Positions 154 to 23,837 of a DNA stretch of 64,000 nt are shown here, piece after piece. Below the pieces are notes generated by a model. That model did not search any database, was not told where the DNA came from, and saw only the letters and a program-made list of their open reading frames with translations. The position numbers were made by a program, and so were the translations under genes. This DNA comes from an uncultured delta proteobacterium. GTDB lineage: Bacteria > Myxococcota_A > Polyangia > Fen-1088. The stretch lies in the NCBI GenBank assembly GCA_963796685.1, contig CAWCMR010000010.1, positions 128,001 through 192,000 of the forward strand. Direction: 5' to 3'. The first letter of the stretch is position 1, and every line of letters begins with the position of its first letter.

Positions 154-280
154 ACAAAGACCCACACGTCAGCCTCCTCGATCTATCCCTGTACCCCGGT
201 GGGAAAACAAGCCCATTTTTGCGGTGGTCGCCGCCATGGATATGGCCTATCCCGGGCCCTGCTTTCGGGGGCCCACTTCG

Positions 281-697
281 TCACCACTCGGGGCTGGGCG
301 GGTCAGCGTAGTCGACCTCGGCGAGGTCGGACGTGCCCGAAAGCTCCGCCTGTGGCGGGGGGCGCGCAGCGGTGCGGAGCGGGGCTTGGCTGGGGATTCC
401 GAGGTGGTCCAGAATCTTGCGTATCGCTTCTGGCTTTGTGATCGCGGCCAGGATCTTCATGCGCCCATGGCACTTTGGGCATGTCAGCGCGTCTGTCATG
501 AACACGCGTTTCAGAAGGAGGGCCCAAGGCAGTCGACTGACTCTTGGTATCTTGGTGATGTCGATGTCGCTGGATTCGCCGGTGCCCGCCTTGTCGGTGG
601 CTACCGAATCGGCGCCCGCCGCATCTGGCGTGGACGGCGCTGGGGGTGTCGGCACCACCTTGGCGCGGTCCTTCGCCGCAGGACCGAAGATCCCGTG
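281..697 (-). pseudogene. IS91-family transposase C-terminal fragment
   Basis: HGIFGPAAKDRA...WALLLKRVF..DALTCPKCHGRMKILAAI..PEAIRKILDHLG, the typical IS91/ISCR C-terminus. Confidence 0.85.
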
Positions 698-1047
698 TTA
701 TGCGGAGCGCTCGATTATGCGGAGTTCAACCGTCCCCAAGTCCCGAGGCTCGCGTGTCCTGCGGACTGGACCGTCGCTGACTCCGCATAATATCAAGCCG
801 ACGTCACCCAGGAGCGGAGGTCAGCGGTGTCTTGCTGGGCATCAGCGATGCGATGAGACGGTCCGGCGGCCGGAAGCGCCCGGGGCGTAGTCGGAGGGGC
901 ACGATGGACTCGATAGCCTCGATCTTCTCGGTCGGATCGGCCTGCAGGTAGATCTCGGTGGTCGACTGGCTCGTGTGTCCGAGCCAGAGCGACACCTTGC
1001 GGAGATCCCCGGTGGCCCGGAGCGTGTCCAACGCGCATGTGTGCCGC
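698..1047 (-). mobile_element. RIT-B element remnant (ritC end only)
   Basis: Terminal repeats TTATGCGGAG(C/T) at 698 and 715 and an inverted copy at 780-790; essentially identical to 16497-16846. Confidence 0.85.
804..1047 (-). pseudogene. C-terminal fragment of RIT-B RitC tyrosine recombinase
   Basis: RHTCALDTLRATGDLRKVSLWLGH...TTEIY carries the tyrosine recombinase LGH and catalytic Tyr motifs. Confidence 0.85.
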
Positions 1048-1067
1048 TTATGCCGTGCTCGGCATAA
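1048..1067. repeat. 20-bp near-palindromic linker of RIT-A, between cores TGCCGC (1042-1047) and GCGGCA (1068-1073)
   Basis: TTATGCCGTGCTCGGCATAA is the exact reverse complement of 16847-16866. Confidence 0.9.
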
Positions 1068-1166
1068 GCGGCATTATGCCGAGTCCCCGGTTATGCCGAG
1101 TTGCCCGCCATTGCATGCAGGAATCACGGGGACTTCGGGTTCGCTTACGTGCGCGACTCGGCATAA

Positions 1167-2165
1167 TCAAAGGCTCTGTAGGAAGGCGAGGAGCTTGTCG
1201 TCGGGGTGGAAGCGAGCAGGTCGCGCTGCCGAGGGTGCTGTCTTGGCCAGCGCCCGCTCTTTGAGCTGGAGACTGGCAGCGAAGTAGATCTGCGTGGTCT
1301 CGACCGACTCGTGACCAAGCCAGAGCGCGATCACCGAGCTGTCGACACCGGCTTGAAGGAGATCCATTGCCGTCGAGTGGCGCAGCACGTGCGGAGACAC
1401 ATGCTTCTCCCTCAGCGAGGGGCAGCGGATCCGAGCGACCTGCACGTGTTTCGCGAGCAGGTACTCGACGCCGTCGCGACTGAGGAAACCGCCCCGCGCG
1501 TTGGGGAAGAGGGGCTCGGTCCCGGTGGCGGCACGTTCGCGCAGCCACGCCCGGAGGACCGAGACGGCCTCTTTGCGCAGGGGCGTGCAACGTTCCTTGC
1601 GGCCCTTGCCGAGGCAGTGAACGTACGCGCCGGGTCCGAGGACCACGTCCTGCACGTTGAGCGCGGCCAGCTCGGATACGCGCAGCCCGGTCTGAACGGC
1701 CACAAGGAGCATGGCGCGATCGCGCCGGCCGGACCATGTGGCCTTGTCGGGAGCTTCGAGGAGTGCGTCGATCTCGGGCCGGGACAGGAAGTGGACGAGC
1801 TCGCGATCGTATTTCTTGCCCTGCATGGCCAGAACCCTCTGGATGACGGCGCTGTAGTCGGGCGCCTGGAGGGCGGCGTACTGGAAGAAGGAGTGGATCG
1901 CCGCGAGCCTGGCGTTGCGGGTGCGCGGAGAGTTGCCGCGGTCCTTCTCGATGTGATCCAGGAACGCGCCAATCGTTGGTGTGTCGAGGTCGTCCAGTGC
2001 GAGCGCCGAGGGAGTCTTCTTCAGGTGCTGCTTCGTGAAGGCCAGCAGTAGGCGGAAGGTATCGCGATAGCTCTGCACTGTATGTGGACTTGCTTGACGC
2101 TGGCGCAGGAGATGGTCCACGAAGAAGGACTCAAGCAGCGCAGGGAATCCGTGGGAGGGCTTCAC
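1167..2165 (-). CDS. RIT tyrosine recombinase RitC
   Basis: TGLRVSEL, GKGRKER, HVLRHS, LGH and TTQIY motifs. Confidence 0.9.
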   Translation of the reverse strand: MKPSHGFPALLESFFVDHLLRQRQASPHTVQSYRDTFRLLLAFTKQHLKKTPSALALDDLDTPTIGAFLDHIEKDRGNSPRTRNARLAAIHSFFQYAALQAPDYSAVIQRVLAMQGKKYDRELVHFLSRPEIDALLEAPDKATWSGRRDRAMLLVAVQTGLRVSELAALNVQDVVLGPGAYVHCLGKGRKERCTPLRKEAVSVLRAWLRERAATGTEPLFPNARGGFLSRDGVEYLLAKHVQVARIRCPSLREKHVSPHVLRHSTAMDLLQAGVDSSVIALWLGHESVETTQIYFAASLQLKERALAKTAPSAARPARFHPDDKLLAFLQSL

Positions 2166-3097
2166 GGCGACGTCCTATCTCGCTCCAGGAGCGACATGGC
2201 GAGGCTCATCAACTCGGGCACTGCGGTCAGGTACCAGTAGGTATCACTGACGTGGGTGTGCCCGAGGTAGGTCGACAGCTGCGGCAGGTGCCGCTCCACA
2301 TCGACTCCTGCCCGGTACCAGCGCAGCATGGTGTCCACGGCCCACCGATGCCGAAGGTCATGCAGACGCGGCCCATGACCGTGACGACCTTCAGGACCAC
2401 GAAGCCCAATCCGGCGAGACAGATGGACGAAGGTGTCTTCTGCAGTGTTCTTCACCACCCGGGCACCTGTCTCGCCGACGAAGAAGCTTCTCGTCCGTGG
2501 TGTTGGATGAACGCGATCACGGAAGCGTGCGTACCGGCAAAGTGCCAGTTTCGTCGATCGATGAATGGGCACCAGCCGGGTCTTCCCGAATTTGGTCCGG
2601 CGGATTGTCAGGATCCCGCCTTCGAGGTCAACATCCTCGCGGTCGAGAGCGATCGCCTCGCTGATCCTCAGACCGGCCACGGTGAGCAGGCCAAGCAGCG
2701 TGACGTAGGTCTGAGCACGAAGCCCCGTCTGCGATGGGAGCCGTGCCGCCGCATCCATCAGCCGCATGATCTCGTCCTCGCTGTATATGTAGGGGCGCTT
2801 GCGTTGATACCGAGCCCGGAGGAGCCCGAGGGCAGGGACCTCGGTGCGAGAATCGGTGGCGCGCCAATACTGTGCAAAGAGCCGGACCGCCGATAGCCGG
2901 CTGGCCCAATACACGGGCTGGGTCTTGGTCGGCCGCACGGCCCATTCGACGACCAGATCGTTGGTAATGAACGGAGCCTTCCGCTGCTCCATGAAGGACA
3001 CAAATTGCAGCAGTAACCGCCCCGAGCGGTCGAGCTTGTAGCCCAGACGGCGTCGCAGCGACAGGTACTCCTCGGCGCCCTCGCGGAGCGTATTCAT
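2162..3097 (-). CDS. RIT tyrosine recombinase RitB
   Basis: MNTLREGAEEYLSLRRRLGYKL...GLRISEA...TKFGKTR...HDLRH...YLGH..VSDTYWY; 4-bp overlaps with both neighbours. Confidence 0.9.
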   Translation of the reverse strand: MNTLREGAEEYLSLRRRLGYKLDRSGRLLLQFVSFMEQRKAPFITNDLVVEWAVRPTKTQPVYWASRLSAVRLFAQYWRATDSRTEVPALGLLRARYQRKRPYIYSEDEIMRLMDAAARLPSQTGLRAQTYVTLLGLLTVAGLRISEAIALDREDVDLEGGILTIRRTKFGKTRLVPIHRSTKLALCRYARFRDRVHPTPRTRSFFVGETGARVVKNTAEDTFVHLSRRIGLRGPEGRHGHGPRLHDLRHRWAVDTMLRWYRAGVDVERHLPQLSTYLGHTHVSDTYWYLTAVPELMSLAMSLLERDRTSP

Positions 3098-4325
3098 CGC
3101 CTGCCTCCTGGCCATGCAGGAGCGAGCGCACGTAGCGCATGGAAGTCTACCTTCGCGTAAATCGTCGTCGTATCGGCTCGACGGTGTCGCAGGACCTGCC
3201 CGATCTCGGTAAGGGTCGCTCCTCGGCGCAGCATCGAGCAGGCGAGCGCATGGCGGAGGATGTGCCCGCCTTTGCGTGGTGGGTCCAGTTCGGCGCGTTC
3301 CAGCGCTCGCTTCACGATCGTACAGACCGCGCCCGTGGTTGCGAAGCCACGCCGCGGCGCTCTCGCGCGGACGAAGACTCTCCGGCACGAGCATGCTGGG
3401 CGGCCATGGCGCAAGTACCGGGCGACGGCCTTGCCGACATCGGACGGCAACGGGAGGACGTCTTGCCGCCCACCCTTGCCGTGGACCCGCAACGTGCCTG
3501 CGGCCCAGTCGAAGTCTGCCAGATCCAGGCTCACGACTTCTCCACCGCGGAGGCCGAGTCGTGCCATCAGCATAATGACCGCGTGGTCGCGCAGGCCGGC
3601 TTCGGAGTTTCTTCGTCGACAGCGGCGCAACAGATGCTCGACGTCGCGCGCGGGGATCGATTTCGGCACCGTTGAGAAACGCCAGCAGGCGACCGCGGGA
3701 ACCGTGGCCGCGAGGTCTGCAGCCAGGGCTCTTTTCACGTGCACCCACCGCAGAAAACCGCGTAGGGCGGTAACCATCAGAGCGGCTCTCTTTGGATGGA
3801 CCACGTGAACATGCCGGACCAGAAATTCACCCGCATCCTGGGGCCCGAGCGCATTGAGGTGCACCTCCTGCCGTCGAACCGCTCCAGGAGGAACGAGCGG
3901 ACAATGGGCAGGTAGTTGATCTGAGTCAAGACGGACAAGCCGCGGTCCACCAACAGATACCGGCCGAACTCACTCACGATCCGCCCGATCGCAGTGTCAT
4001 CGACCTTGACGGGCGCTGGCGGCGCAAGACCGGCGGAACGGACCCGTTCAAGGACATCACGCAATGTCGCTGCGTCTCCACGCCGGGGTACGCAGGGATG
4101 GCGCCGGACAAAGCGGGCTACGGCCTGCTCGTCGACCTCCTCGACAGTCAGTCCTCGCCGTCCAAGCCAGTCTCCGAACTTCGCTGCCAGGCGCACCTTG
4201 CACGCCACGGTCGCAGGCGGATATCCCCTCTCAGTGAGCGTTTTTGCAAACGTGTCGAGGTGCGGACCCAAGGGGCCAGCGCGCAGTCGTTGCCATTTCA
4301 GAAAATCGTCGTGCATCCGGGGCAT
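3094..4325 (-). CDS. RIT tyrosine recombinase RitA (1-bp frameshift near 3866, possibly an assembly error)
   Basis: Two ORFs that join into the intact 410-aa protein seen at 17014-18246. Confidence 0.85.
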
Positions 4326-5557
4326 GTGTCCTCCTTCGGCCCGGTGGCCAGAAGGAGACGACGACGCCCTGGTTATGCCGAGTCCGCAAGCCCACCTGCC
4401 GAGGAAATCGCCGTTGATCGCGCCAGATCGAGAGGCTCACTCGGCATAACCGGGGACTCGGCATAATGGCGCAAGACGTGGGCGCCTTTGAATGGAAAGG
4501 TCAGCCGCGCACGCGTGAAGGCCAGTCGGACAGCGGCTGTCACAGCCGAGGAGCTGAGCGGCTGGCCCACCGGCAGCTGGTGCCGGACGAACATGTGACG
4601 ATCGTCGGTGTGCGGCCGGCCGCGGCGTAGGTAGTCAACCAGTGCGCGCCCCACCGGTGCGGGCAGCGGCAGGACACTGGCCCGCCGCTCCTTTCCGCGA
4701 CCGACTCGCAAGGTGCCCGCCCGCCAATCCACGTCATCGAGCAACAGCGCAGCGACTTCGCCGGCCCGCAAGCCAAGCCCAGCCATGCACGAAACCATCG
4801 CGTAGTCCCGCCGTCCAGTCGCCGCGGTCAAGTCGAACGACGCAAGCAAGGCGGCGAGTTGCTCGTCGGACAGACCTCGGGGAAGATTCCCTCGGCGCCA
4901 ATGCGCCACCTTGGGAACAGCGGCTGCCAGTGTCCCTTCGCACAGGCCAGCGACTTGCGCAAATCGAAGGAAGCTACGCAACGCCGTTCGGACAAGCCCC
5001 GCCGCGCCCGGCGAGTACTTTCTGGTCTGCTCCGACACGAAGCCAATCAATTCCTTGGGCCCAAGCCGGCGCAGATCGATCTCGCCAGTCCCGTAGAGGG
5101 AAACCAGAAACCGACGAACGTGCAAGACGTTGCCCTGGCTGGTGGCATCGGTCACTCCGCACGTGTTTTGTCGGTAGGTCCTGAAGGACTCGAGCATACG
5201 GTCCACAGGCGTCTGCACTGGCCGCTGTGGGGGGGTGGCTACGCCCTGTGCGCGCAGCACGGCCAACACGTGGTCCAGTGCCGCCCGCATGTGACAACGC
5301 AACCCGTGTGGCACCCGACACTTGCATCGCGGGAGGTGCCCTTCCAGGAACGACGCTAGGGTAACTTCCCCCACCGCGTTCGGGCTGATCCTTTTGAGAT
5401 CTAACCAATGGGAGAAGTGGCCGGCTGCGCACAGGTACGATTGCCCGACTCTCGGTGTATGACCGCGCTTCTCCAAATGCGCAGCGACATCGTCAAGGAT
5501 CCCGCCCAGCGCTCCGCCGCGAAGGCGAGCCAGCACATAGTCATAGGTGAAAAACTT

Positions 5558-6968
5558 GGCTCTCCTGACATCTTCGTAAAGGGAGATCTCGTAGGTGCGA
5601 CGCACGTCGCCGACGGAGATGTGGGCGGCATGAGTTCCGGGTGAGGTGGAGACGAAGTGCGCACGGGCACCTGGGGTATCGTGTGGCTTGTCTGGAACCC
5701 ACAAGCCCAGGAGCCCATGCGCGCAACCACCCTATTCCGAAACCTACTCCAATTTCCACATACCCGTGTCCTGGCGGTCGAATTCGATCTGCTTGGCATA
5801 TTGGTGCACGTGGCGCCAACGACGACCGTTCCCTACTGTTCAGGCTGCGGATGTCGGGTCCATGACGTGTTCGATGCTCGGGCTCGGAACTGGCGGCATC
5901 TGGACGCGTGCGGGATGGAGGTTCTTCTGCGCTACACCCTGCGCAGGGTTGACTGTCCTCGGTGCGGCGTGGTCATCGAGATGGTCCCTTGGGCCGAGCC
6001 GAAGGTCGGCTTCACGCGTGACTTCGAGGACCATGTGGCCTATCTGGCCCAACAAGCAAGCCAGACGATGGTGGCCGAAACCATGCGCATCGCGTGGCGC
6101 ACCGTCGGCGCCATCATCCAGCGGGTGGTGCCGCGGCACCGAGATCCTAGCCTTCTCCTCGAGGACCTCGAACACATCGGCGTCGACGAGTTGTCGTACC
6201 GGCGGCACCATGAGTACGTCACCGTCGTTGTCGACCACGTCTCGCAGCGGGTCGTCTGGGCACACGAGGGCAAGAACGCTGCGACGCTCGGCTGCTTCTT
6301 CGACGCTCTCGGCCCGGAACGAACCAGCAAGCTCAAGACCGTCACCATCGACATGTCCGCGGCCTACATCGACGCGGTCACCTCGCGAGCGCCACAAGCG
6401 CAGATCGTCTTCGACCGCTTCCACGTTCAGAGACTCGTGCAGGAAGCACTCGACGAGCTCCGGCGTGCGGAGGTCCGACTCCTGGAGGACACCGACGAAC
6501 GCGGGCAACTGAAGAAGACCAAGTACCTTCTGCTCAAGAATCCGTGGAACCTATCCAGGGCCGAGTCTGAGAGGCTTTCGACCCTCCCGAAGACCAATGC
6601 CCGACTCTATCGCGGCTACCTGCTCAAGATCGCCATCTGCGACATCCTCGGTCGTCGCCAGGTCAACGTCGTCAAACAGAAGCTCGAAGAATGGATCAGT
6701 TGGGCCAGGCGATCCAGACTACCTTCCTTCAAGAAGGTCGCCGCGACCATCAAGAAATACCTGGACGGCATCGTGGCCATTGTCGCCACAGGGCTCAATA
6801 ACGGAAGAACCGAGGGCCTTAATGGCAAGATCAGGGTCATCACCCGCAGGGCCTATGGCTTCCACAACGCTCAAGCCCTCATTGGCTTCATCTTCCTCTG
6901 CTGCTCAGGCGTTGTCCTTCATCCCGTCTTCAAGGTGCCCGCGCTTCCATGAAGATGTCAGGAGAGCC
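5558..6968 (+). mobile_element. ISL3-family insertion sequence
   Basis: IRs GGCTCTCCTGACATCTTC / GAAGATGTCAGGAGAGCC; target duplication AAAAACTT / AAAAACTG. Confidence 0.92.
5717..6952 (+). CDS. ISL3-family transposase
   Basis: Zn finger CSGCG...CPRCG, IGVDE, TIDMS, FDRFHV, NGRTEGLNGKIRVITRRAYGF. Confidence 0.92.
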   Translation: MRATTLFRNLLQFPHTRVLAVEFDLLGILVHVAPTTTVPYCSGCGCRVHDVFDARARNWRHLDACGMEVLLRYTLRRVDCPRCGVVIEMVPWAEPKVGFTRDFEDHVAYLAQQASQTMVAETMRIAWRTVGAIIQRVVPRHRDPSLLLEDLEHIGVDELSYRRHHEYVTVVVDHVSQRVVWAHEGKNAATLGCFFDALGPERTSKLKTVTIDMSAAYIDAVTSRAPQAQIVFDRFHVQRLVQEALDELRRAEVRLLEDTDERGQLKKTKYLLLKNPWNLSRAESERLSTLPKTNARLYRGYLLKIAICDILGRRQVNVVKQKLEEWISWARRSRLPSFKKVAATIKKYLDGIVAIVATGLNNGRTEGLNGKIRVITRRAYGFHNAQALIGFIFLCCSGVVLHPVFKVPALP

Positions 6969-7106
6969 AAAAACTGCTCCAGCATGAGTGCTCCTTCCTG
7001 GCCAACAGGCCATCAAGAGCGCCCAAGACTATGCTGACAAACAGAACCCACCAATTCGAGCGACCCACCGGGAAATCCAGCACAGATCGCGTGCGGGTCA
7101 CGAGCA

Positions 7107-7166
7107 ACTCAGCATAATCCGAAACTCAGCATAGGACGGTCTATGCTGAGTTCAGCATAGTCCATC
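7107..7166. repeat. RIT-C terminal repeat, core GACGGT, 20-bp linker CTATGCTGAGTTCAGCATAG and core TCCATC
   Basis: ACTCAGCATAA-N6-ACTCAGCATAG (7107/8-7134), core 7135-7140, palindrome 7141-7160, core 7161-7166. Confidence 0.85.
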
Positions 7167-7757
7167 CATCACGATGACGTGGAAGTGAACATTCAGATTC
7201 AGCGACGACCCGAACCGTTGCACGACGGTGAGGCTTCCGGTCTGCAGTCGGCCTCGAAGCTTGCGCATGCGTGCGCGGCGGCGGAGGTCGGAGTTGATGG
7301 CGCTGATGAATGCACCTAAAACCACGCTCGTGGCGTCGGGTGAATAGGCCATTTTGAAGCGCAAGGCATAGGGTAGCGAGAGCACATATTGCCGAGCAGG
7401 CACCTGGGGAAAAAGGTAATCTACGCAGAAAGCTGCCGTGTCTGCCATGCGGCGGCCAAGACAGCTCGGGCAAAATCCACGCCGCTTACACGCGAACGCC
7501 ACGACTCTGCTGTGCCCACAGTCTTTGCATCGGACGCGAAGAAGGCCGTGCACGAGGATGCCACAACGAAGGTAAGCCTCGATCTCGTCAAGCACGAAGG
7601 CGGGCAGCTCGCCGCCTCCTGATTCCAGATCTGCCAGGAACGTCGCCCAGTGTTCCTGTATCGTTCGATAAAGCAAAGTCGCTTCGAAGCTATGCCGCTC
7701 ATACGAGCCCGCGGGCGCGTGGGTGTGACAGCTTGCTGCTGGTTGCGTGGAAAGCAC
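7161..7757 (-). pseudogene. IS91-family transposase N-terminal fragment
   Basis: Zn-binding region YLRCG...CKDC...ACKRRGFCPSC and HUH motif NVHFHVIVMDG, where it is cut. Confidence 0.9.
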
Positions 7758-7860
7758 CAGCGGAAGTTCTCGGCAACACGGAGATACTTGTTGCTAGCGG
7801 AACGGGCCGACGACGAGACCTGTCAGGCCGACAGGAAGTGATGGATGCGACCTCGCCTAG

Positions 7861-8394
7861 GCCATAGGCGATTCGAAGAGGTCCTTTTTGAGCGTCGGAG
7901 AACCCTGCCGGACCGCATCGGCGCTGCCACGAGCACTTCTGCGTAGTGCGCTTGACCGGGTTTCTGGGGCCTGACGGGAGCTTTCTCAAGCACGCAGGGC
8001 AGTCTACTGCATCCCGCCCTTGTCGACGTGCCGTCAGTTCAGCCAGTCTCCGCCCTCGCCACCAGATTGCGAGGGAGGTGGTCGTGCGGGCCAGAGTTTT
8101 GGGGCGTCGGTGGGTAGCCTCATGGCAGACAGGATTTTCTGAGAAGCTGGCTCCAAGAAATGTAGTGCGAAAGTGGCAGTGAAGGCTTGTCCTTTTCCTC
8201 GGGTGTCGCCACGGCGGGGACGGGGACGACTTGGGAGGTGGGATGATCGCGGCCAGTCTGGCAATGAGGGCCAGCGGCGCAAGTTCGATCGACGAGGTGG
8301 CGCCAGACCAAGGCCGCTTGAGCTCCAGCCTCACGAGTTTGTCATCCAGGATCTTCAGCCGGGCGTCGTCGCGACCTCGACCTGTGCAACGCAC
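7861..8394 (-). pseudogene. third IS91-family remnant (degraded transposase C-terminus and possible oriIS)
   Basis: VRLELKRPWSGATSSIELAPLALIARLAAIIPPP, then ...KILSAMRLPTDAPKLWPARPPP; oriIS-like CTCTTCGAATCGCCTATGG near 7862-7880 (minus). Confidence 0.65.
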
Positions 8395-8483
8395 AAAGAG
8401 GCCCGGAGAATGAAGGCTTCTCCGGATCTCGATCCGAACCCTTCATTTCTCATCCGTCTCTGTGTTCTCTGTGTCCTCTGTGG

Positions 8484-12622: not shown

Positions 12623-12771
12623 GACGGGGTTCTTTATCGGGCAGAGAGGCGCGTCAGTTGCCTCCCTTCTCGGTTATCACATCTGGCCCGCGTTGGGCGA
12701 GCAGCAACTAACGCTGCGCGAGAATGGTGTTTGGGCGATTCGCAGCTCGCCTCGGTTTCTTCAAGCGACCG

Positions 12772-15312: not shown

Positions 15313-15639
15313 TGCCCGCGCACTATACCCATTGGACCATGCCTTAGCGCGAATTTAACCCTTCAGGATTTTCGCATCTTCTCCGACTGCCTCCATGCTC
15401 ACGTGCCCGCCCACCAAACTTTTTGATCAGGACGGAGACTAGGGTGCGATCCAGGTTTGACCGTTCGACGTGCAGGCCATCTTCCCGGTGTCGGCGTTCC
15501 CCGTGTAGAGCCAGGCGGTGACCGTCTGCGAAGCTCCGGCGGCCGTCGACTTGACCCGGCACCGTCCATCGGCGCCCAGGTGCGAGCATGCCGATGAGGC
15601 GGCACCGTCCGTGCCGGTGCAGGCGTTGCGCTGCCCCGT

Positions 15640-15819
15640 CCGATGGCGACGGGGATGAGCAAGCCCGCGCCTGTCTGCGTCGGCGAGAAAGCGAGCGAGA
15701 GAACCGTTGTCCGCAACCAGGTCCTTGCACGCCGGGCACTCGTCAAGATGCCGCTTGGCCTCGGGCGAGGCGGTGTCGCCGCCACCCAGGACCCTTTGCC
15801 TGATCTGCGTGCAGTCCAT
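15640..15819 (-). pseudogene. degenerate partial copy of the anti-sigma gene at 30878-31720
   Basis: MDCTQIRQRVLGGGDTASPEAKRHLDECPACKDLVADNGSLARFLADA versus MDCAQIRQRVLGGGDAASPEAKRHLDECPACRDLVEDNGSLARFLADA; internal deletion to AGLLIPV. Confidence 0.8.
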
Positions 15820-15918
15820 GTCAGCTATCTCGCGGCATTTTCTCATCGCTGCCTGGTAGGTCTCGTCCGCGGCGCGTTCCGCTAGCAACAAATATCGCCG
15901 TGTTGCCGAGAGGTCCCG

Positions 15919-16464
15919 TTGGTGCTTTCCACGCAACCAGCAGCAAGCTGTCACACCCACGCGCCCGCGGGCGCGTATGAGCGGCATCGCCCCGAAACAA
16001 CTTTGCTTTATCGAACGAGAAAGGTCACGCGCTACGTAGGGCAGCTCACCGGAGAGGACAGGGATCAGCAGCTGACCCTTGAGCATCTGGCCAATTCTTC
16101 CGTGCAAGGGCTGGTCGCGACGGGGCCACGCCGAGGCTGTCGAGTGTTGCGCCTAGGAGGTACCCGCGAACATGCCCAGGCGGCCATCATAGGCAAGAGA
16201 TGTGCAGATGTGGCCGGTTTCAACGTGCACGCCAACGTGCGCGTGGGCGCCAACGACCGCGACGGCCTCGAACATTTGTGCCGATACCTTGCTCGACCAC
16301 CCATCGCGAATGACCGATTGCAAGAGCTGCCCGACGGCCGACTTGCCTTGCGCTTCAAGCAAGTTTGGCGGGATGGCACGACCCAAATCGTATTCACGCC
16401 GCACGAGCTGATAGAGAAGCTGATCCCATTGATTTCCCGCCCTCGCTGCCATCTGGTCCGATAA
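15919..16464 (+). pseudogene. IS91-family transposase N-terminal/middle fragment (Zn and HUH region deleted)
   Basis: Same start as copy 1 (LSTQPAASCHTHAP), then GFNVHANV...LEHLCRYLARPP...WRDGT...HLVR*HG. Confidence 0.85.
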
Positions 16465-16470
16465 CACGGC

Positions 16471-16490
16471 TTATGCGGTGCTCTGCATAA
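16471..16490. repeat. 20-bp near-palindromic linker of RIT-B, between cores CACGGC and CCCGTG
   Basis: TTATGCGGTGCTCTGCATAA. Confidence 0.88.
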
Positions 16491-16602
16491 CCCGTGTTAT
16501 GCGGAGCGCTCGATTATGCGGAGTTCAACCGTCCCCAAGTCCCGAGGCTCGCGTGTCCTGCGGACTGGACCGTCGCTGACTCCGCATAATATCAAGCCGA
16601 CG

Positions 16603-16846
16603 TCACCCAGGAGCGGAGGTCAGCGGTGTCTTGCTGGGCATCAGCGATGCGATGAGACGGTCCGGCGGCCGGAAGCGCCCGGGGCGTAGTCGGAGGGGCA
16701 CGATGGACTCGATAGCCTCGATCTTCTCGGTCGGATCGGCCTGCAGGTAGATCTCGGTGGTCGACTGGCTCGTGTGTCCGAGCCAGAGCGACACCTTGCG
16801 GAGATCCCCGGTGGCCCGGAGCGTGTCCAACGCGCATGTGTGACGC
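16603..16846 (-). pseudogene. RIT-B ritC C-terminal half
   Basis: Continues PHTLRH from 20267 as RHTCALDTL...LGH...TTEIY. Confidence 0.88.
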
Positions 16847-16866
16847 TTATGCCGAGCACGGCATAA
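16847..16866. repeat. 20-bp linker of RIT-A copy 2, between cores TGACGC and GCGGCA
   Basis: TTATGCCGAGCACGGCATAA. Confidence 0.9.
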
Positions 16867-17013
16867 GCGGCATTATGCCGAGTCCCCGGTTATGCCGAGT
16901 GAGCCTCTCGATCTGGCGCGATCAACGGCGATTTCCTCGGCAGGTGGGCTTGCGGACTCGGCATAACCAGGGCGTCGTCGTCTCCTTCTGGCCACCGGGC
17001 CGAAGGAGGACAC

Positions 17014-18246
17014 ATGCCCCGGATGCACGACGATTTTCTGAAATGGCAACGACTGCGCGCTGGCCCCTTGGGTCCGCACCTCGACACGTTTGCAAAAACG
17101 CTCACTGAGAGGGGATATCCGCCTGCGACCGTGGCGTGCAAGGTGCGCCTGGCAGCGAAGTTCGGAGACTGGCTTGGACGGCGAGGACTGACTGTCGAGG
17201 AGGTCGACGAGCAGGCCGTAGCCCGCTTTGTCCGGCGCCATCCCTGCGTACCCCGGCGTGGAGACGCAGCGACATTGCGTGATGTCCTTGAACGGGTCCG
17301 TTCCGCCGGTCTTGCGCCGCCAGCGCCCGTCAAGGTCGATGACACTGCGATCGGGCGGATCGTGAGTGAGTTCGGCCGGTATCTGTTGGTGGACCGCGGC
17401 TTGTCCGTCTTGACTCAGATCAACTACCTGCCCATTGTCCGCTCGTTCCTCCTGGAGCGGTTCGACGGCAGGAGGGTGCACCTCAATGCGCTCGGGCCCC
17501 AGGATGCGGGTGAATTTCTGGTCCGGCATGTTCACGTGGTCCATCCAAAGAGAGCCGCTCTGATGGTTACCGCCCTACGCGGTTTTCTGCGGTGGGTGCA
17601 CGTGAAAAGAGCCCTGGCTGCAGACCTCGCGGCCACGGTTCCCGCGGTCGCCTGCTGGCGTTTCTCAACGGTGCCGAAATCGATCCCCGCGCGCGACGTC
17701 GAGCATCTGTTGCGCCGCTGTCGACGAAGAAACTCCGAAGCCGGCCTGCGCGACCACGCGGTCATTATGCTGATGGCACGACTCGGCCTCCGCGGTGGAG
17801 AAGTCGTGAGCCTGGATCTGGCAGACTTCGACTGGGCCGCAGGCACGTTGCGGGTCCACGGCAAGGGTGGGCGGCAAGACGTCCTCCCGTTGCCGTCCGA
17901 TGTCGGCAAGGCCGTCGCCCGGTACTTGCGCCATGGCCGCCCAGCATGCTCGTGCCGGAGAGTCTTCGTCCGCGCGAGAGCGCCGCGGCGTGGCTTCGCA
18001 ACCACGGGCGCGGTCTGTACGATCGTGAAGCGAGCGCTGGAACGCGCCGAACTGGACCCACCACGCAAAGGCGGGCACATCCTCCGCCATGCGCTCGCCT
18101 GCTCGATGCTGCGCCGAGGAGCGACCCTTACCGAGATCGGGCAGGTCCTGCGACACCGTCGAGCCGATACGACGACGATTTACGCGAAGGTAGACTTCCA
18201 TGCGCTACGTGCGCTCGCTCCTGCATGGCCAGGAGGCAGGCGATGA
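17014..18246 (+). CDS. RIT recombinase RitA
   Basis: LGLRGGEV, HGKGGR, GHILRH, VLRHR..TTTIYAK. Confidence 0.92.
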   Translation: MPRMHDDFLKWQRLRAGPLGPHLDTFAKTLTERGYPPATVACKVRLAAKFGDWLGRRGLTVEEVDEQAVARFVRRHPCVPRRGDAATLRDVLERVRSAGLAPPAPVKVDDTAIGRIVSEFGRYLLVDRGLSVLTQINYLPIVRSFLLERFDGRRVHLNALGPQDAGEFLVRHVHVVHPKRAALMVTALRGFLRWVHVKRALAADLAATVPAVACWRFSTVPKSIPARDVEHLLRRCRRRNSEAGLRDHAVIMLMARLGLRGGEVVSLDLADFDWAAGTLRVHGKGGRQDVLPLPSDVGKAVARYLRHGRPACSCRRVFVRARAPRRGFATTGAVCTIVKRALERAELDPPRKGGHILRHALACSMLRRGATLTEIGQVLRHRRADTTTIYAKVDFHALRALAPAWPGGRR

Positions 18247-19178
18247 ATACGCTCCGCGAGGGCGCCGAGGAGTACCTGTCGCTGCGACGCCGTCTGGGCT
18301 ACAAGCTCGACCGCTCGGGGCGGTTACTGCTGCAATTTGTGTCCTTCATGGAGCAGCGGAAGGCTCCGTTCATTACCAACGATCTGGTCGTCGAATGGGC
18401 CGTGCGGCCGACCAAGACCCAGCCCGTGTATTGGGCCAGCCGGCTATCGGCGGTCCGGCTCTTTGCACAGTATTGGCGCGCCACCGATTCTCGCACCGAG
18501 GTCCCTGCCCTCGGGCTCCTCCGGGCTCGGTATCAACGCAAGCGCCCCTACATATACAGCGAGGACGAGATCATGCGGCTGATGGATGCGGCGGCACGGC
18601 TCCCATCGCAGACGGGGCTTCGTGCTCAGACCTACGTCACGCTGCTTGGCCTGCTCACCGTGGCCGGTCTGAGGATCAGCGAGGCGATCGCTCTCGACCG
18701 CGAGGATGTTGACCTCGAAGGCGGGATCCTGACAATCCGCCGGACCAAATTCGGGAAGACCCGGCTGGTGCCCATTCATCGATCGACGAAACTGGCACTT
18801 TGCCGGTACGCACGCTTCCGTGATCGCGTTCATCCAACACCACGGACGAGAAGCTTCTTCGTCGGCGAGACAGGTGCCCGGGTGGTGAAGAACACTGCAG
18901 AAGACACCTTCGTCCATCTGTCTCGCCGGATTGGGCTTCGTGGTCCTGAAGGTCGTCACGGTCATGGGCCGCGTCTGCATGACCTTCGGCATCGGTGGGC
19001 CGTGGACACCATGCTGCGCTGGTACCGGGCAGGAGTCGATGTGGAGCGGCACCTGCCGCAGCTGTCGACCTACCTCGGGCACACCCACGTCAGTGATACC
19101 TACTGGTACCTGACCGCAGTGCCCGAGTTGATGAGCCTCGCCATGTCGCTCCTGGAGCGAGATAGGACGTCGCCGTGA
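18243..19178 (+). CDS. RIT recombinase RitB
   Basis: Same protein as 2162-3097. Confidence 0.92.
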   Translation: MNTLREGAEEYLSLRRRLGYKLDRSGRLLLQFVSFMEQRKAPFITNDLVVEWAVRPTKTQPVYWASRLSAVRLFAQYWRATDSRTEVPALGLLRARYQRKRPYIYSEDEIMRLMDAAARLPSQTGLRAQTYVTLLGLLTVAGLRISEAIALDREDVDLEGGILTIRRTKFGKTRLVPIHRSTKLALCRYARFRDRVHPTPRTRSFFVGETGARVVKNTAEDTFVHLSRRIGLRGPEGRHGHGPRLHDLRHRWAVDTMLRWYRAGVDVERHLPQLSTYLGHTHVSDTYWYLTAVPELMSLAMSLLERDRTSP

Positions 19179-20173
19179 AGCCCTCCCACGGATTCCCTGC
19201 GCTGCTTGAGTCCTTCTTCGTGGACCATCTCCTGCGCCAGCGTCAAGCAAGTCCACATACAGTGCAGAGCTATCGCGATACCTTCCGCCTACTGCTGGCC
19301 TTCACGAAGCAGCACCTGAAGAAGACTCCCTCGGCGCTCGCACTGGACGACCTCGACACACCAACGATTGGCGCGTTCCTGGATCACATCGAGAAGGACC
19401 GCGGCAACTCTCCGCGCACCCGCAACGCCAGGCTCGCGGCGATCCACTCCTTCTTCCAGTACGCCGCCCTCCAGGCGCCCGACTACAGCGCCGTCATCCA
19501 GAGGGTTCTGGCCATGCAGGGCAAGAAATACGATCGCGAGCTCGTCCACTTCCTGTCCCGGCCCGAGATCGACGCACTCCTCGAAGCTCCCGACAAGGCC
19601 ACATGGTCCGGCCGGCGCGATCGCGCCATGCTCCTTGTGGCCGTTCAGACCGGGCTGCGCGTATCCGAGCTGGCCGCGCTCAACGTGCAGGACGTGGTCC
19701 TCGGACCCGGCGCGTACGTTCACTGCCTCGGCAAGGGCCGCAAGGAACGTTGCACGCCCCTGCGCAAAGAGGCCGTCTCGGTCCTCCGGGCGTGGCTGCG
19801 CGAACGTGCCGCCACCGGGACCGAGCCCCTCTTCCCCAACGCGCGGGGCGGTTTCCTCAGTCGCGACGGCGTCGAGTACCTGCTCGCGAAACACGTGCAG
19901 GTCGCTCGGATCCGCTGCCCCTCGCTGAGGGCGAAGCATGTGTCTCCGCACGTGCTGCGCCACTCGACGGCAATGGATCTCCTTCAAGCCGGTGTCGACA
20001 GCTCGGTGATCGCGCTCTGGCTTGGTCACGAGTCGGTCGAGACCACGCAGATCTACTTCGCTGCCAGTCTCCAGCTCAAAGAGCGAGCGCTGGCCAAGAC
20101 AGCACCCTCGGCAGCGCGACCTGCTCGCTTCCACCCCGACGACAAGCTCCTCGCCTTCCTACAGAGCCTTTGA
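19175..20173 (+). CDS. RIT recombinase RitC
   Basis: Differs from 1167-2165 by one residue (LRAKH vs LREKH). Confidence 0.92.
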   Translation: MKPSHGFPALLESFFVDHLLRQRQASPHTVQSYRDTFRLLLAFTKQHLKKTPSALALDDLDTPTIGAFLDHIEKDRGNSPRTRNARLAAIHSFFQYAALQAPDYSAVIQRVLAMQGKKYDRELVHFLSRPEIDALLEAPDKATWSGRRDRAMLLVAVQTGLRVSELAALNVQDVVLGPGAYVHCLGKGRKERCTPLRKEAVSVLRAWLRERAATGTEPLFPNARGGFLSRDGVEYLLAKHVQVARIRCPSLRAKHVSPHVLRHSTAMDLLQAGVDSSVIALWLGHESVETTQIYFAASLQLKERALAKTAPSAARPARFHPDDKLLAFLQSL

Positions 20174-20266
20174 TTATGCCGAGTCGCGCACGTAAGCGAA
20201 CCCGAAGTCCCCGTGATTCCTGCATGCAATGGCGGGCAACTCGGCATAACCGGGGACTCGGCATAA

Positions 20267-21033
20267 TGCCGCAGCGTGTGTGGCGAAACACTTCTGCCGG
20301 CCAGCGATGGGCACGCGACCGCTGCGGCGGCAACGTGCTTGCGAAGCACATATTCGAAGCCCGAGCGCGACATAGGGTGAGCGGTGGCCGCGAGGAACAA
20401 CTCGGGACAGGAGGCAGTGCCTCGGATGGCGAGCCAGGCGCGGATAGCGTCGCCTACTTCCTTCCACAGCAGGAGCGCGCGCTCCTTGCGACCCTTGCCG
20501 AGCACGCAAATCTCGACGTAGCGGCCGTCGAAGCGCACGTTGTCGAGGCGCAGCCCGACGAGCTCGGAGACACGCAATCCGCCAGTGAGTGCGAGGTAGA
20601 GCATGGCGCGGTCGCGAATGCCGAGACGCGACGCTGGGTCCGGCGCGTCGAGGACGGCACGCGATTCCGTGGCCGACAGATGTTTCACCAGGCGGGTGTC
20701 GGTGCGCTGCAACGGGATCGCAAGCACGCGCTGGATCTGGTCGAGCGCCGCGGGAACGCGATACTCGATGAAGTGCATGAAGGATCGGACGGCGGCCAGC
20801 CGCGTGTTGCGTGAGCGGGCGCCGTTGCCGCGCTCGCGTTGGATGTGGTCGAGGAATGCCAGCACGAGAGACGCGTCGATGTGCTCGATCTGGATCTCGG
20901 AGGGCGTTACGCCCAGGCGCCTGCTTGCGAACGCGAACAAGAGTTGGAAGGCATATGCATAGGCGACGCGCGTATTTTCACAGGTGATCCGCTCACGAAG
21001 AAACGCGGTGATGTGTGGAGCGATCGGGGTCAT
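20267..21033 (-). pseudogene. RIT-B ritC N-terminal part, cut at LRH by RIT-A
   Basis: MTPIAPHITAFL...GGLRVSEL...GKGRKER...SPHTLRH. Confidence 0.9.
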
Positions 21034-21941
21034 CGGCGTCCTCCTTCGAAGCGACGCTGGCAGGCGTCGGCAACCTGCGACATGAGCATTGGCGTGGCCT
21101 GAAAGTACCAGTAGGTATCAGCGATACAGCTGTGGCCGAGGTACGTCGAAACCGCGAGCATGTGCCTGGCGATTCGATCGCGCCGATCAGGAGAGCTTTC
21201 GAGAGCGCGCACGGCGAATGTGTGCCGGATGTCGTGCACGCGCGGTTTGCGTCCTCCCGACCGCGCCGGCAGGCCAGCTTTCCGGAGCACCGTGAGCCAT
21301 GCCTTGCGAAAGCCGCCGTAGGAAAGACGCGTGCCTTTGATGCTCACGAACACGTGGTCGTCGCTGCCGGCCACTGCACGTCGGCGGTCCAGATACTGCT
21401 TGATCCCGCTCTGCGCCGAGGGATGGAGCGGGACCAGACGCGTCTTGCCGAACTTGGTCTTGCGGATGACCAGGCCGTCCGATGTCACGTCAGCCATGCG
21501 CAAGGCGAGTGCTTCTGAGATGCGTAGCCCTGTCGCAAAGAGCAGCGCCAGCATCGTGCTCACGGTGAGCGGCCGGAGCGACTTTGCTGGTCCGAGCCGC
21601 GCTGCGACCTCGACGAGCCGGCGCGTTTCGTCCGGGGTGTAGATGTACGGAACCGGCCGATGCCGCTTTCCCGAGAAGTGGCGATCCGGGGGAATCTCGT
21701 GGCGGGGGTCTTCGGCGTGGAGATAGCGGGCGAGTTGAACGACCCGCTGGAAGAGCCGGCACCGCTGGCCAGGTGTGGCCGCGTGCGATGCCCACGCGAG
21801 GGCGGTTTCGGCGCGAACGTGGTCCTCGCCGCGGGCGGCGGCGAACTCGGCGAATCGACGCAGGTGCCGCTCGTATTTTCTGAGCGCGAAACCGCTTGCT
21901 CGCCGCGTGGCCAGCCAGGTATCGATGAGTGTCATCAGCAT
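21030..21941 (-). CDS. RIT-B recombinase RitB
   Basis: TGLRISEA, TKFGKTR, HDIRH, YLGH..IADTYWY. Confidence 0.9.
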   Translation of the reverse strand: MLMTLIDTWLATRRASGFALRKYERHLRRFAEFAAARGEDHVRAETALAWASHAATPGQRCRLFQRVVQLARYLHAEDPRHEIPPDRHFSGKRHRPVPYIYTPDETRRLVEVAARLGPAKSLRPLTVSTMLALLFATGLRISEALALRMADVTSDGLVIRKTKFGKTRLVPLHPSAQSGIKQYLDRRRAVAGSDDHVFVSIKGTRLSYGGFRKAWLTVLRKAGLPARSGGRKPRVHDIRHTFAVRALESSPDRRDRIARHMLAVSTYLGHSCIADTYWYFQATPMLMSQVADACQRRFEGGRR

Positions 21942-23176
21942 GACGCCCCTCCGATCCACGGCTGCGCCACTGAACGCAGAAGCTCCACATCGACCTTGGC
22001 GTAGTGGGAGGTCGTCTCGACAGATCGGTGCCGGAGCACTATTCCGATCGAAGGAAGGGAGATGCCTTCACGTAGCATCGCCGTCGCGGCAGAGTGACGC
22101 AGTAGATGAGCGCCCCGGGTCGGGGTGGATGCGCCCGCACGGGCGATGGCGCGCTTGACGATGCAGGAAACGCAGGAACTTTCCGCCAACGGCCGCCACG
22201 GTGTACGGGATCTCAGAAAAACCCGGTCACATCCGACAACAGCGCGCCGGGCGCGCAAGTAGGCGAGGATCGCATCTCCGACTTCCTGGGGGAGCGGCAG
22301 CCGCACCTCGCGGCGCCCCTTGCCCGCGACCTGCACGCGAGCGTTTGCCCAGTCGATGTCGCTTAGGCGCATCCGGACGATGTCGCCGCCCCGTAGTCCG
22401 AGCCGGGCGAGGAGCAGCAGGATGGCGCGGTCGCGCGCACCGTCCGGTCGACTCGAATCGCACGCGTCGATGATCCGCTGCACGACTTCGGCGGACACGT
22501 ACCTCGGCAGCGAATCCAAACTCCAACTCGCCACTGGCAGGACGGCCGCATCAAGACCAGGTCGGCACCGTCCCTCCAGTGCGAGGTAGCGCAGAAATGC
22601 GCGTGCGACGGTCGTAACTTGCTTCGCCGTTGCGGCGCCATGTCCACCGACTACCTCACGCACCGCCGCTCGAAGCACGCCCGCCCCGTAGCGAGCGGGG
22701 TCGTCACCGAGGTGTTCCAGGAGTGCGATGGCAACGCGCCTGTAGTGGCGCAAGGTCGTATCTGTGGCGCCACGCTGGCGCCGCATCCACTCGCAAAACC
22801 CCGTCACCAGATCCGGTGTTGCTATCGCCTGCTGCCCCGGAACCGCAACGACCCCCACTGTGCGCAAGTACTGCACGAAGACCCACGTGCGCGGACGGGC
22901 GACTGCATGAAAACCGGCGCGGTTTCCGGGGCAACGGCATCGAGACAGGTGCGCCAAGAATGCGCTCAAAGTTTCCTCGTCCAAATCCCCGATTCGCACG
23001 TCCTCAGCAGTGGCCCAAATGCCGAGATGCACGGCGTAGGTGATGCACCATGTGCCAATCCGCTTGCAGTAGCCGATCTCGCGTAGAGCGGTGGCGAAGC
23101 CGTCGAGATACGACCCAACGGGACTCGATCGAGCTCGCGCGAGCCAGTACGCCGATCGCAGAAAGTACTCCAACAT
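21935..23176 (-). CDS. RIT-B recombinase RitA
   Basis: Start MLEYFLRS with RBS GAGGAG; LGLRGGD, GKGRRE, AHLLRHS, TTSHYAK. Confidence 0.9.
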   Translation of the reverse strand: MLEYFLRSAYWLARARSSPVGSYLDGFATALREIGYCKRIGTWCITYAVHLGIWATAEDVRIGDLDEETLSAFLAHLSRCRCPGNRAGFHAVARPRTWVFVQYLRTVGVVAVPGQQAIATPDLVTGFCEWMRRQRGATDTTLRHYRRVAIALLEHLGDDPARYGAGVLRAAVREVVGGHGAATAKQVTTVARAFLRYLALEGRCRPGLDAAVLPVASWSLDSLPRYVSAEVVQRIIDACDSSRPDGARDRAILLLLARLGLRGGDIVRMRLSDIDWANARVQVAGKGRREVRLPLPQEVGDAILAYLRARRAVVGCDRVFLRSRTPWRPLAESSCVSCIVKRAIARAGASTPTRGAHLLRHSAATAMLREGISLPSIGIVLRHRSVETTSHYAKVDVELLRSVAQPWIGGASC

Positions 23177-23341
23177 TGTTTCCTCCTCGGTGGACGGGTC
23201 GGGATCATCCCGGCCCTGAGAGGAGGACACCTCCGTTATGCTGAGCCGTCTAGGGCGCGCCACGCGGTCAACTACCCGCCGACACGCAGGGATCGTGACG
23301 GGCACATCGCGGCACTCCGCATAATCGAGCGCTCCGCATAA

Positions 23342-23758
23342 CATGGCATCCTCGGCCCCGCGGCCAAGGATCGCGCCAAGGTGGTGCCGACCCCGCCCAC
23401 GCCACCCGCGCCAGATGCGGCGGGTGCCGAGGCGGCCGGCGCGGACAAGGCGGGCGAGGGTGAATCTCGCGAGATCGACCTCAGCAAGAGACCAAGAGTC
23501 AGCCGACTGCCTTGGGCCATTCTTCTCAAACGCGTGTTCCTGACAGACGCGCTGACATGCCCGAAGTGCCAAGGGCGGATGAAGATCCTGGCCGCGATCA
23601 CAAAGCCAGAAGCAATACGCAAGATTCTAGAACACCTAGGAATCCCCAGCGAAGCCCCACGCCGCACCTCCGCGCGTCCACCGCCGCAATCTGAGCTTTT
23701 GGGCACGTCCGACCTCGCCGAGGTCGACTACGCGGACCCGCCCAGCCCCGAGTGGTGA
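23342..23758 (+). pseudogene. IS91 transposase C-terminal fragment (copy 2)
   Basis: HGILGPAAKDRAK...WAILLKRVF..CPKCQGRM; closely similar to 281-697. Confidence 0.88.
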
Positions 23759-23837
23759 CGACCCTGGGGCTCCAGAAGTGGGGCCGGGATAGGCCATGTC
23801 CATGGCTACACCGCCTCGCAAAATGGGCTTGTTTTCC

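Follow-up and report, generated by a model that had tools for sequence, protein, structure and literature searches.

Recombinase-in-trio elements nested at conserved-motif codons of other mobile elements' genes in an uncultured delta proteobacterium

The 64,000-nt stretch of DNA analysed here (the window) comes from an uncultured delta proteobacterium (Myxococcota_A; Polyangia; Fen-1088; GCA_963796685.1, contig CAWCMR010000010.1, positions 128,001 to 192,000 of the forward strand), and its region 692-23347 contains nested RIT (recombinase-in-trio) elements, reportedly known since 2009 and said to be treated in Van Houdt 2009 and 2012, Janssen 2010 and Ricker 2013. We conclude that RITs (~3.4 kb) very probably insert by tyrosine-recombinase site-specific recombination, and that the target, specific to each lineage, is the codons of a conserved motif in a gene of another mobile element. 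Target choice is inherited within clades, the exact positions recur in independent targets, both orientations occur and an empty site exists.

The host genome comprises 7.3 Mb in 26 contigs, and the GC content of the window is 58-70%. Pfam identified eight tyrosine recombinase genes within 1167-23572, as well as an ISL3 transposase and an IS91 zinc-finger/Y2 fragment in the window. Repeat analysis found a segment of 3.4 kb that is present twice, in opposite orientations (1068-4472 and 16867-20272), a direct repeat of 300-410 bases immediately left of both, and inverted IS91-like pieces (233-758 and 23281-23806) that are 84% identical. Three families were distinguished, RIT-A, RIT-B and RIT-C, which are RITs by every defining feature tested. 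The defining arrangement of three adjacent recombinase genes on one strand, in the order RitA (long), RitB and RitC, is present, with gene overlaps of ATGA at ritA/ritB and GTGA at ritB/ritC in RIT-A and of ATGA at ritB/ritC in RIT-B. Phage_integrase domains were detected in the RIT-A proteins (a 410-aa RitA open reading frame (ORF), a 528-aa ORF containing RitB and a 332-aa RitC ORF; RitB itself has 311 aa counted from its likely start at 18243) and in those of RIT-B; a search of the Rit proteins against NCBIfam returned Xer-type matches only, all below threshold. All three proteins appear to carry the catalytic RH...Y motif, read by eye in the translations as ILRH, DLRH and VLRH boxes with a downstream Tyr. 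The repeats enclose these three genes only, with no further protein of the TnpC, Tfp/Srap or GinC/D type. Size, gene order, repeats and palindrome agree with the RIT descriptions in the available portion of PMC3414803, and the RITs of Cupriavidus metallidurans CH34 and other bacteria have the same adjacent trio, ATGA-type overlaps, a length of ~3.5 kb, a 28-bp inverted repeat plus palindrome, and several identical copies per genome. RITs are further characterised by gene overlaps of 4-8 bp and terminal inverted repeats of roughly 28-34 bp, ranges into which the elements of the window fall.

The three families share one end design (Table 1). At each end, two direct arms of 11 bp form a 28-bp inverted repeat (RIT-A, TTATGCCGAGT twice; RIT-B, TTATGCGGAG..; RIT-C, CTATGCTGAG..); a third arm, inverted, lies ~66 bp inward of each repeat and a 6-bp core outside it, at the junction. 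One end alone has in addition a palindrome of 20 bp, in which 4 bases separate an arm from an inverted arm, and a further core beyond it. The inner core, enclosed by palindrome and repeat, reads as the reverse complement of both outer cores. These are the spare inverted cores beside a linker noted in a preliminary description of this DNA, which had also placed the three families at conserved-motif codons of other elements' genes. All the elements, cores and motifs that it named are present in the sequence, and the flanks read x/RH for RIT-A, RY/HG for RIT-B and HxHxxxx/DG for RIT-C (the slash marks the junction).

RIT-B is present in the host genome as three copies, one in the window (16465-23347) and the others on contigs C11 and C25, and as one end fragment, which is identical to window 16491-16840. 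Its target in IS91-family genes is ..RPRCHLVR(Y)/HGILGPAAKDRAKVVP, that is, ..CHLVR(Y)/HG/ILGPAAKDR. The copies are 99.9% identical over 6.9 kb and their IS91 flanks only 85-87% (W2, C11 and W1), and such near-identity within diverged flanks implies at least three separate insertions; the upstream flanks on C11 and C25, 97% identical, are the sole close pair. The IS91 piece that adjoins the end fragment is 85-91% identical to window 23348-23850 and C11 3021-3530. Relative to the IS91 gene, RIT-B is antiparallel in the window and parallel on C11. Three of the 19 IS91-family rows in the host genome are occupied, 15 are unoccupied and 1 is partial; all three copies of the RY/HG type are occupied, and the 15 unoccupied copies have RYSG or RYFG. 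Uninterrupted IS91 genes of related genomes read GTCCGA TAC CACGGC ATCCTCGG, with 25 of 26 rows passing through the site and one stopping at a contig end. The Tyr codon 5' of the core, TAC or TAT in unoccupied homologues, is TAA at all three upstream junctions (window 16459-16470, C11 and C25). Comparison of these junctions suggests that one element-derived base may lie beyond the 6-bp core, which would make the exchanged stretch 7 bp in this family. In the window, the IS91 5' region also recurs as an inverted repeat of 174 bases (89%), 15851-16024 against 7655-7828, and the IS91 copy there that holds RIT-B seems ~590 bases shorter than that on C11, the HxH..DG site being included in the gap.

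RIT-A occurs in five copies that are 99.8-99.9% identical. The two in the window are inverted relative to each other and ~99.9% identical, and ritA of copy 1 has a 1-nt deletion in a G run near 3864 (GGAGGTGC vs GGAGGGTGC in copy 2), the gene being split into two frames. The target is the xRH codons of the HxxRH box in recombinase genes of other RITs, in the window PHTL/RH(TCALD..) of RIT-B ritC and AHVL/RH(TAATR..) of RIT-C ritA. Window copy 2 and the copy on C11 lie between ..SPHTL and RHTCALDTLRATGDLRKVSLWLG of RIT-B ritC, antiparallel to the gene, and the copy on C12 lies between ..KGAHVL and RHTAATRMVRAG of RIT-C ritA, with both flanks present and parallel. On C25 (L093, 678535-684174) the left flank is ..RVHDI/RH of RIT-B ritB and the right flank the 3' part of ritC_B, the 950 bp between the two HxxRH sites of this RIT-B copy having been deleted. 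RIT-A is found at three different HxxRH sites in the host genome, in ritC_B (both orientations), ritB_B and ritA_C, and every RIT-B and RIT-C copy there has a recombinase gene split by it. Copy 1 is chimeric, being flanked by the 5' part of ritA_C and, on its opposite side, by the 3' part of ritC_B. Read along the minus strand, an IS91 N-terminal piece is followed by the left part of RIT-C, RIT-A, the right end of RIT-B and an IS91 C-terminal piece. Most simply, this order would go back to a single IS91 copy with RIT-C at DG and RIT-B at RY/HG, each holding a RIT-A in the same direction, and to a last step in which recombination between the two RIT-A copies deleted the intervening DNA.

An empty RIT-A site was found on a 1,996-base contig of a peat metagenome (run X7), which joins window 16840 to 20267 through an intact ritC_B with a single core and skips 3426 bases compared with the occupied window site; relative to the empty site, RIT-A adds 3,426 bp. 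In two soil runs, 95-99% identical RIT-A lies in a further recombinase gene, between ..KRVHPHML and RHCFATHML. The sequencing data comprised 21 runs, all assembled contigs in which rare forms are not visible and each covering at most 0.36 of the sampled words, and only the empty-site joint and the extra junctions were taken from them.

These sites bear on an alternative in which the IS91 and recombinase fragments belong to the moving unit, or were spread by homologous recombination or gene conversion between target copies. It is consistent with the 97% identity of the C11 and C25 upstream flanks, and the chimeric and inverted arrangements demonstrate homologous recombination between RIT copies. 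However, flanks 13-15% diverged surround a RIT-B that is 99.9% identical, gene conversion cannot give opposite orientations at one site, and the empty and occupied sites differ by exactly the element. We consider this alternative very unlikely.

RIT-C, like RIT-B, lies in IS91-family genes, at HxHxxxx/DG, which reads NVHFHVIVM/DG in the window and SPHFHVLHL/DGAYAPGRDG on C12. Both copies have ritA split by RIT-A. The window copy also contains, just past the ritA_C start codon, an ISL3-family insertion sequence with the duplication AAAAACT that has at least 14 near-identical copies in the host genome. The C12 copy holds a group II intron of 2,078 bases (L091 2453-4530, C12 26452-28529; Rfam RF02001 and RF00029; RVT_1 and GIIM; at least 11 genome copies), situated exactly after the RIT-C palindrome and replacing the core. 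Group IIC introns insert after hairpins by means of a reverse transcriptase, and the position of the C12 intron recalls these hairpin-inserting introns. IS91-family copies with frames of ~509 codons and RYSG instead of RYHG lie a few kb apart at 12 places within 7907-130403 of C9. In the window, a repeat of ~130 bases at 8393-8526 (at least 20 genome copies, 81-96% identical) adjoins an SNF2-type helicase gene at 8484-10139.

Table 1. Positions of the RIT elements, their target pieces and inserted sequences in the window
Feature	Position	Strand	Details
IS91-family transposase C-terminal piece	183..691	-	starts ..HG/IFGPAAKDRAKVVP, adjoins RIT-B end fragment
RIT-B right-end fragment	692..1041	-	core 692-697 (reverse complement CACGGG), inverted repeat 698-725, ritC_B 3' part from RH codons
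RIT-A copy 1	1042..4472	-	whole element
RIT-A copy 1 palindrome end			core 1042-1047, palindrome 1048-1067, core 1068-1073, inverted repeat 1074-1101
RIT-A copy 1 genes		-	ritC 1167-2165, ritB 2162-3097, ritA 3094-4325
RIT-A copy 1 other end			inverted repeat 4439-4466, core 4467-4472 (reverse complement GCGCCA)
RIT-C left part	4473..7166	-	ritA_C 5' part to AHVL/RH (4473-5556 and 6969-6985); ISL3-family insertion sequence inside
ISL3-family insertion sequence	5557..6968	+	transposase 5657-6952; DDE_Tnp_ISL3, E 5.7e-71
RIT-C palindrome end			inverted repeat 7107-7134, core 7135-7140, palindrome 7141-7160, core 7161-7166 (reverse complement GATGGA)
IS91-family N-terminal piece	7167..7757	-	ends ..NVHFHVIVM before RIT-C core; Zn_Tnp_IS91 and Y2_Tnp positions 1-26
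IS91-family piece	16021..16470	+	ends ..LCRYLARPP..CHLVR-TAA, plus core CACGGC 16465-16470
RIT-B right end	16471..16840	-	palindrome 16471-16490, core 16491-16496, inverted repeat 16497-16524, ritC_B 3' part
RIT-A copy 2	16841..20272	+	whole element
RIT-A copy 2 palindrome end			core 16841-16846 (reverse complement GCGTCA), palindrome 16847-16866, core 16867-16872, inverted repeat 16873-16900
RIT-A copy 2 genes		+	ritA 17014-18246, ritB 18243-19178, ritC 19175-20173
RIT-A copy 2 other end			inverted repeat 20239-20266, core 20267-20272
RIT-B remainder	20273..23347	-	ritC_B 5' part 20273-21033 (ends ..SPHT(L)), ritB_B 21030-21959, ritA_B 21935-23176
RIT-B other end			inverted repeat 23314-23341, core 23342-23347 (CATGGC)
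IS91-family C-terminal piece	23348..23761	+	HG/ILGPAAKDRAKVVP..CPKCQGRMKIL..

Read in the sense of the target, the RIT-A cores are GCGGCA, GCGTCA and GCGCCA, with a fourth, CCGGCA, on C25; those of RIT-B are CACGGC, CACGGG and CATGGC, and those of RIT-C GATGGA and GACGGT, with GATGGC on C12. In the window and genome, the six variable columns out of 18 are exactly the six third-codon columns, for which our own arithmetic gives a chance of 1 in 18,564. The proposal that cores differ at third codon positions only therefore holds for this genome, whereas in the wider set described below a few cores differ off the wobble positions (CACCGA, GCGGGC at RY/AG, TACGGC at Y/YG, and AGG vs CGG for Arg). 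Inner cores correspond to synonymous versions of the target codons, even CGC vs AGA, and one, TAGAAA, fits a DFRK-coding target and not its own DMRK site. The palindrome-side core of window RIT-A copy 2 is GCGTCA and the X7 empty site has GCGGCA. As far as such comparisons of sequence go, the cores are consistent with carry-over of the 6 bp from the donor site. Carry-over from previous sites would account for spare and internal cores that vary only at synonymous positions, and wobble-only variation is expected if cores are copied from coding targets.

Relatives were collected with the RitB proteins of the three families. RitB of RIT-B, scanned against one genome per species, gave 80 loci (41-79% identity), RitB of RIT-C, scanned against metagenomes, gave 55 loci (44 examined, 11 partial or weak ones dropped), and RitB of RIT-A, searched in 89 genomes of the window's taxonomic order, gave 6 further usable loci. 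Flank genes were read by motif-anchored frames with Pfam checks, and eleven junction labels were set by hand after flank reading. A double-arm end was recognisable in 40 of the 80 and 32 of the 44 loci, and a target could be assigned to 29 of these 40, 30 of these 32 and all 6 from the window's order.

Close relatives of each family were found at the same codons as in the window. The preliminary description had named RIT-B or RIT-C homologues at unrelated sites as the outcome that would count against it, and the relatives thus speak in its favour. All three readable junctions of RIT-B relatives (L011, L012 and L013; RitB 74-79%; three phyla) are at RY/HG of IS91 genes, the eight readable-junction loci of the RIT-C clade (L094-L097, L099, L100, L102 and L163; RitB 74-99%) are at HxHxxxx/DG, and the three genomic relatives of RIT-A (L171, L172 and L151; RitB 87-89%), along with one metagenomic junction, are at x/RH of tyrosine recombinase genes. 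Phage_integrase matches end at profile position 136 of 172 in the window, L171 and L172 alike. In a genome of the same genus, the RIT-A relatives L171 and L172 are in turn broken up by inserted DNA, of 3.5 kb at L171 2209-5767 and of 2.6 kb at L172 8121-10744.

Relatives at a greater distance sit at different motifs, likewise conserved in genes of mobile elements. These are HVLPTG/F and LCR/Y of IS91, LW/HxD of an rve transposase, DMR/K of IS66 TnpB (12 loci), GRK/N of IS66 TnpC, RGEDS/EN of DDE_Tnp_1_4, ITTN/R of IstB, LLSFA/QYERE of a large serine recombinase, KYGK/SR of a tyrosine recombinase, FHECV/HSTGH of ArdC, LRLLT/N of an AAA_22 ATPase, ..VNRDL/ of TrbI (10 loci), and FSGFWSQGDG/A of a gene on 106 plasmids (8 loci) that is named through plasmid annotations only (antitoxin). 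Where flanks allowed, Pfam confirmed Y2_Tnp, rve, Resolvase plus Recombinase, TnpB_IS66, DDE_Tnp_1_4, TrbI, AAA_22, Phage_integrase, ArdcN plus MPTase-PolyVal and IstB_IS21 as targets. Pfam gave no match on the flanks of L021, L024, L050 and L086 or on the FSGFWSQGDG plasmid gene, nor did NCBIfam on five unnamed flank genes of relatives. Among the targets seen are serine and tyrosine recombinases, genes for conjugation and anti-restriction, and transposases that belong to at least five families. The suggestion that an enzyme motif is targeted does not extend to every target: the plasmid gene is annotated as an antitoxin, the insertions in TrbI fall within its final codons, and IS66 TnpB is not known to be an enzyme.

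On a RitB tree of 64 rows, the 15 target classes require 14 changes, which is the minimum, compared with a mean of 42.6 after shuffling and with 0 of 200 shuffles as low, a comparison that shows clustering only since the rows are related to one another and include near-identical copies. The DG clade (9 rows, support 98) branches from within the RY/HG users, and the sister subclade of RIT-C (68-74%) uses RY/HG in place of DG. The DG and HG cores are one base apart (GAYGGN vs CAYGGN) and both are often followed by GTG. At 74% RitB identity, RitA is 65-67% identical within the DG clade vs 56-58% in the HG subclade (~9 points), and RitC is 73-76% vs 68-72%, a difference that gives a weak hint from the sequences that RitA may carry target specificity.

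Near-random insertion, with survival only in dispensable mobile-element genes, could mimic targeting, and all identified targets are indeed dispensable mobile-element genes. Selection of this kind cannot, however, fix a single codon, and whichever way the trio points, the junction is at one and the same nucleotide, even in targets that have diverged and in different phyla. Target class moreover tracks the RitB clades, and the codon-exact recurrence already contradicts random insertion, which we regard as having almost no likelihood.

The ends follow a simple rule. Across 102 classified junctions in 16 target classes, the presence of the palindrome follows the flank type, that is, the upstream or downstream piece of the target gene, with no exception. 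The side of the palindrome depends on the polarity of the target gene and not on the direction of the trio: the palindrome is on the upstream piece only at IS91 RY/HG, DG and LCR/Y, TrbI and IstB, and on the downstream piece only in the other palindrome-bearing classes, while the trio is found in both orientations (parallel/antiparallel: IS66 TnpB 2/3, plasmid gene 3/3, RY/HG 2/2). Loci with two flanks of the same type also obey the rule, having either no palindrome (L034, L111 and L112) or two (L049, L131 and L134), and from their sequences they look like inversions between oppositely oriented copies.

We infer that RITs move as circles, in which the palindrome would have a complete arm-core-arm crossover site on either side, the two sites being opposite in polarity. 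Recombination of either circle site with the target core would result in insertion in one or the other orientation, and in both cases the palindrome would come to lie on one fixed side of the target gene. The 6-bp cores would act as coupling sequences carried from the previous site, as in Tn554 or Tn916, target recognition would have to extend beyond the core, and insertion would split the target gene.

Several observations weigh against site-specific insertion as proposed here, or against parts of it. No circle junction was found in the assembled contigs of the 21 runs, a data type blind to rare forms. This null result would also fit a variant in which the targeting is real and the moving form is a hairpin-ended linear molecule, or insertion itself creates the palindrome at the junction; in the accessible part of PMC5737581, RIT DNA is described as exonuclease-protected without detectable circle junctions, and hairpin intermediates are proposed. 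Against this variant, the palindrome is built of family-specific arms and the inner core lies in a complete arm-core-arm site, and the two-site circle predicts the fixed side of the palindrome in both orientations without added assumptions. We find this variant doubtful, though a serious candidate, and retain the two-site circle.

Further points on the same side concern the targets and the data. The targets resemble the arms little. A fitting site is not always filled: 12 IS91 copies on C9 and one each on C11 and C5 retain an unfilled HxHxxxxDG with the core GATGGA, GATGGT or GACGGT, and the unoccupied C9 flanks are almost the same as the occupied C12 site. It may be that these sites are unfilled because both RIT-C copies, each broken by RIT-A and one of them also holding the group II intron, are dead in the host genome. 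The chimeric RIT-A copy 1 could in principle be an assembly error (genome completeness 88.6%, contamination 6.5%). Among relatives, no recognisable end was found in 40 of 80 and 12 of 44 loci, and 8 plus 2 readable junctions lie in unnamed genes. At L063 (5981-6667 and 10049-10735), L054, L076, L077, L087 and L088, the trio is instead flanked by near-perfect inverted duplications of 95-750 bases, each carrying an ORF that points outward and ends in ..LKLDDPSFTAP.Y..L...LIWSR. On one side, a RIT-type arm (CTCCGCATAA) is present beyond the inverted duplication, and RitB relatives of the same inverted-duplication type occur on short contigs such as L038, L064, L065 and L071.

Individual RIT insertions have been described before. 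Two related trios inactivate radC and one an IS66-family tnpA (PMC2864759), and a RIT within a Tn6049-like transposase gene is reported together with "complex combinations" with truncated RIT genes (PMC3414803), according to the accessible portions of these papers. Table 1 of a 2023 comparison, likewise available in part, lists RIT target specificity as "not tested", with no movement reproduced (PMC10214605). The earlier reports are of single cases, in contrast to the codon-exact lineage targets, both orientations, palindrome rule, apparent core carry-over, RIT-in-RIT nesting and target-by-clade tree presented here. A full-text literature search, whose coverage did not extend to Ricker 2013, Van Houdt 2009 or supplements (Tables S4 and S5 of PMC3414803 may list insertion contexts), found no stated RIT target rule, and within the partly available sources the targeting rule and the end-structure rule appear unreported.

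RITs resemble Tn554, SE (strand-biased circularizing elements) and GInt in having several tyrosine recombinases and inserting site-specifically without target duplication, and for the Tn554/SE type a 6-bp sequence moves from the old site to the new according to the available part of PMC10214605. They differ in lacking cargo and a fourth protein of the TnpC, Tfp or Srap type, and in having inverted double-arm ends, a palindrome and both orientations. Tn554, SE and GInt use one chromosomal att site, whereas RITs use motifs of mobile-element genes. Inteins, homing endonuclease genes and group I and II introns occupy the most conserved codons, which are common to many genomes and hard to mutate away. 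These elements splice out and the host gene works, whereas a RIT insertion splits the gene by the chemistry of tyrosine recombination; no splicing signals accompany the 3.4 kb that divide the RIT target frames, and the likeness to homing elements lies only in the logic of target choice. IS110/IS1111 elements also insert at defined sequences, often in other repeats or mobile elements, with a DEDD recombinase and guide RNA; these and the group IIC introns use different enzymes from RITs and have no protein-motif logic in their targets.

Whether RITs serve their hosts is a separate question. Trios might be kept for a benefit to host or plasmid, disabling transposons and conjugation genes as an anti-mobile-element function; every match splits a mobile-element gene, and all RY/HG-type IS91 copies in the host genome are occupied. 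RITs disable one another too, however, and they have multiplied, with five copies of RIT-A in the host genome. We think such a function unlikely, although it is compatible with codon-targeted insertion. The preliminary description spoke of parasitism and of inactivation of the host enzyme; the target reading frames are split, and Pfam confirms the split target genes, from which inactivation and a parasitic habit may be supposed.

The evidence leaves about evenly balanced the broader proposition that RITs as a whole are widespread hyperparasitic homing elements, with lineage-wise, protein-directed recognition of 20-30 bp of motif-coding DNA that tolerates synonymous changes, an orientation-free palindromic double crossover site, and target switches (RY/HG to DG) driven mainly by RitA. 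The mobile DNA in the host genome is layered, with RIT-A in RIT-B and RIT-C, those in IS91, and a group II intron in RIT-C, and one element can silence another. RIT targeting would explain why "integrase" trios are so often annotated beside broken transposase genes. The window and ~70 related loci give exact target sites for 16 lineages, an empty site and a simple end-structure rule, so that a direct integration assay can now be designed for which the target and the ends are known and the junction is predicted. If the proposal is true, RITs curb the spread of transposons as well as their own, one lineage holding back another, and would represent a natural set of recombinases with different, definable specificities.

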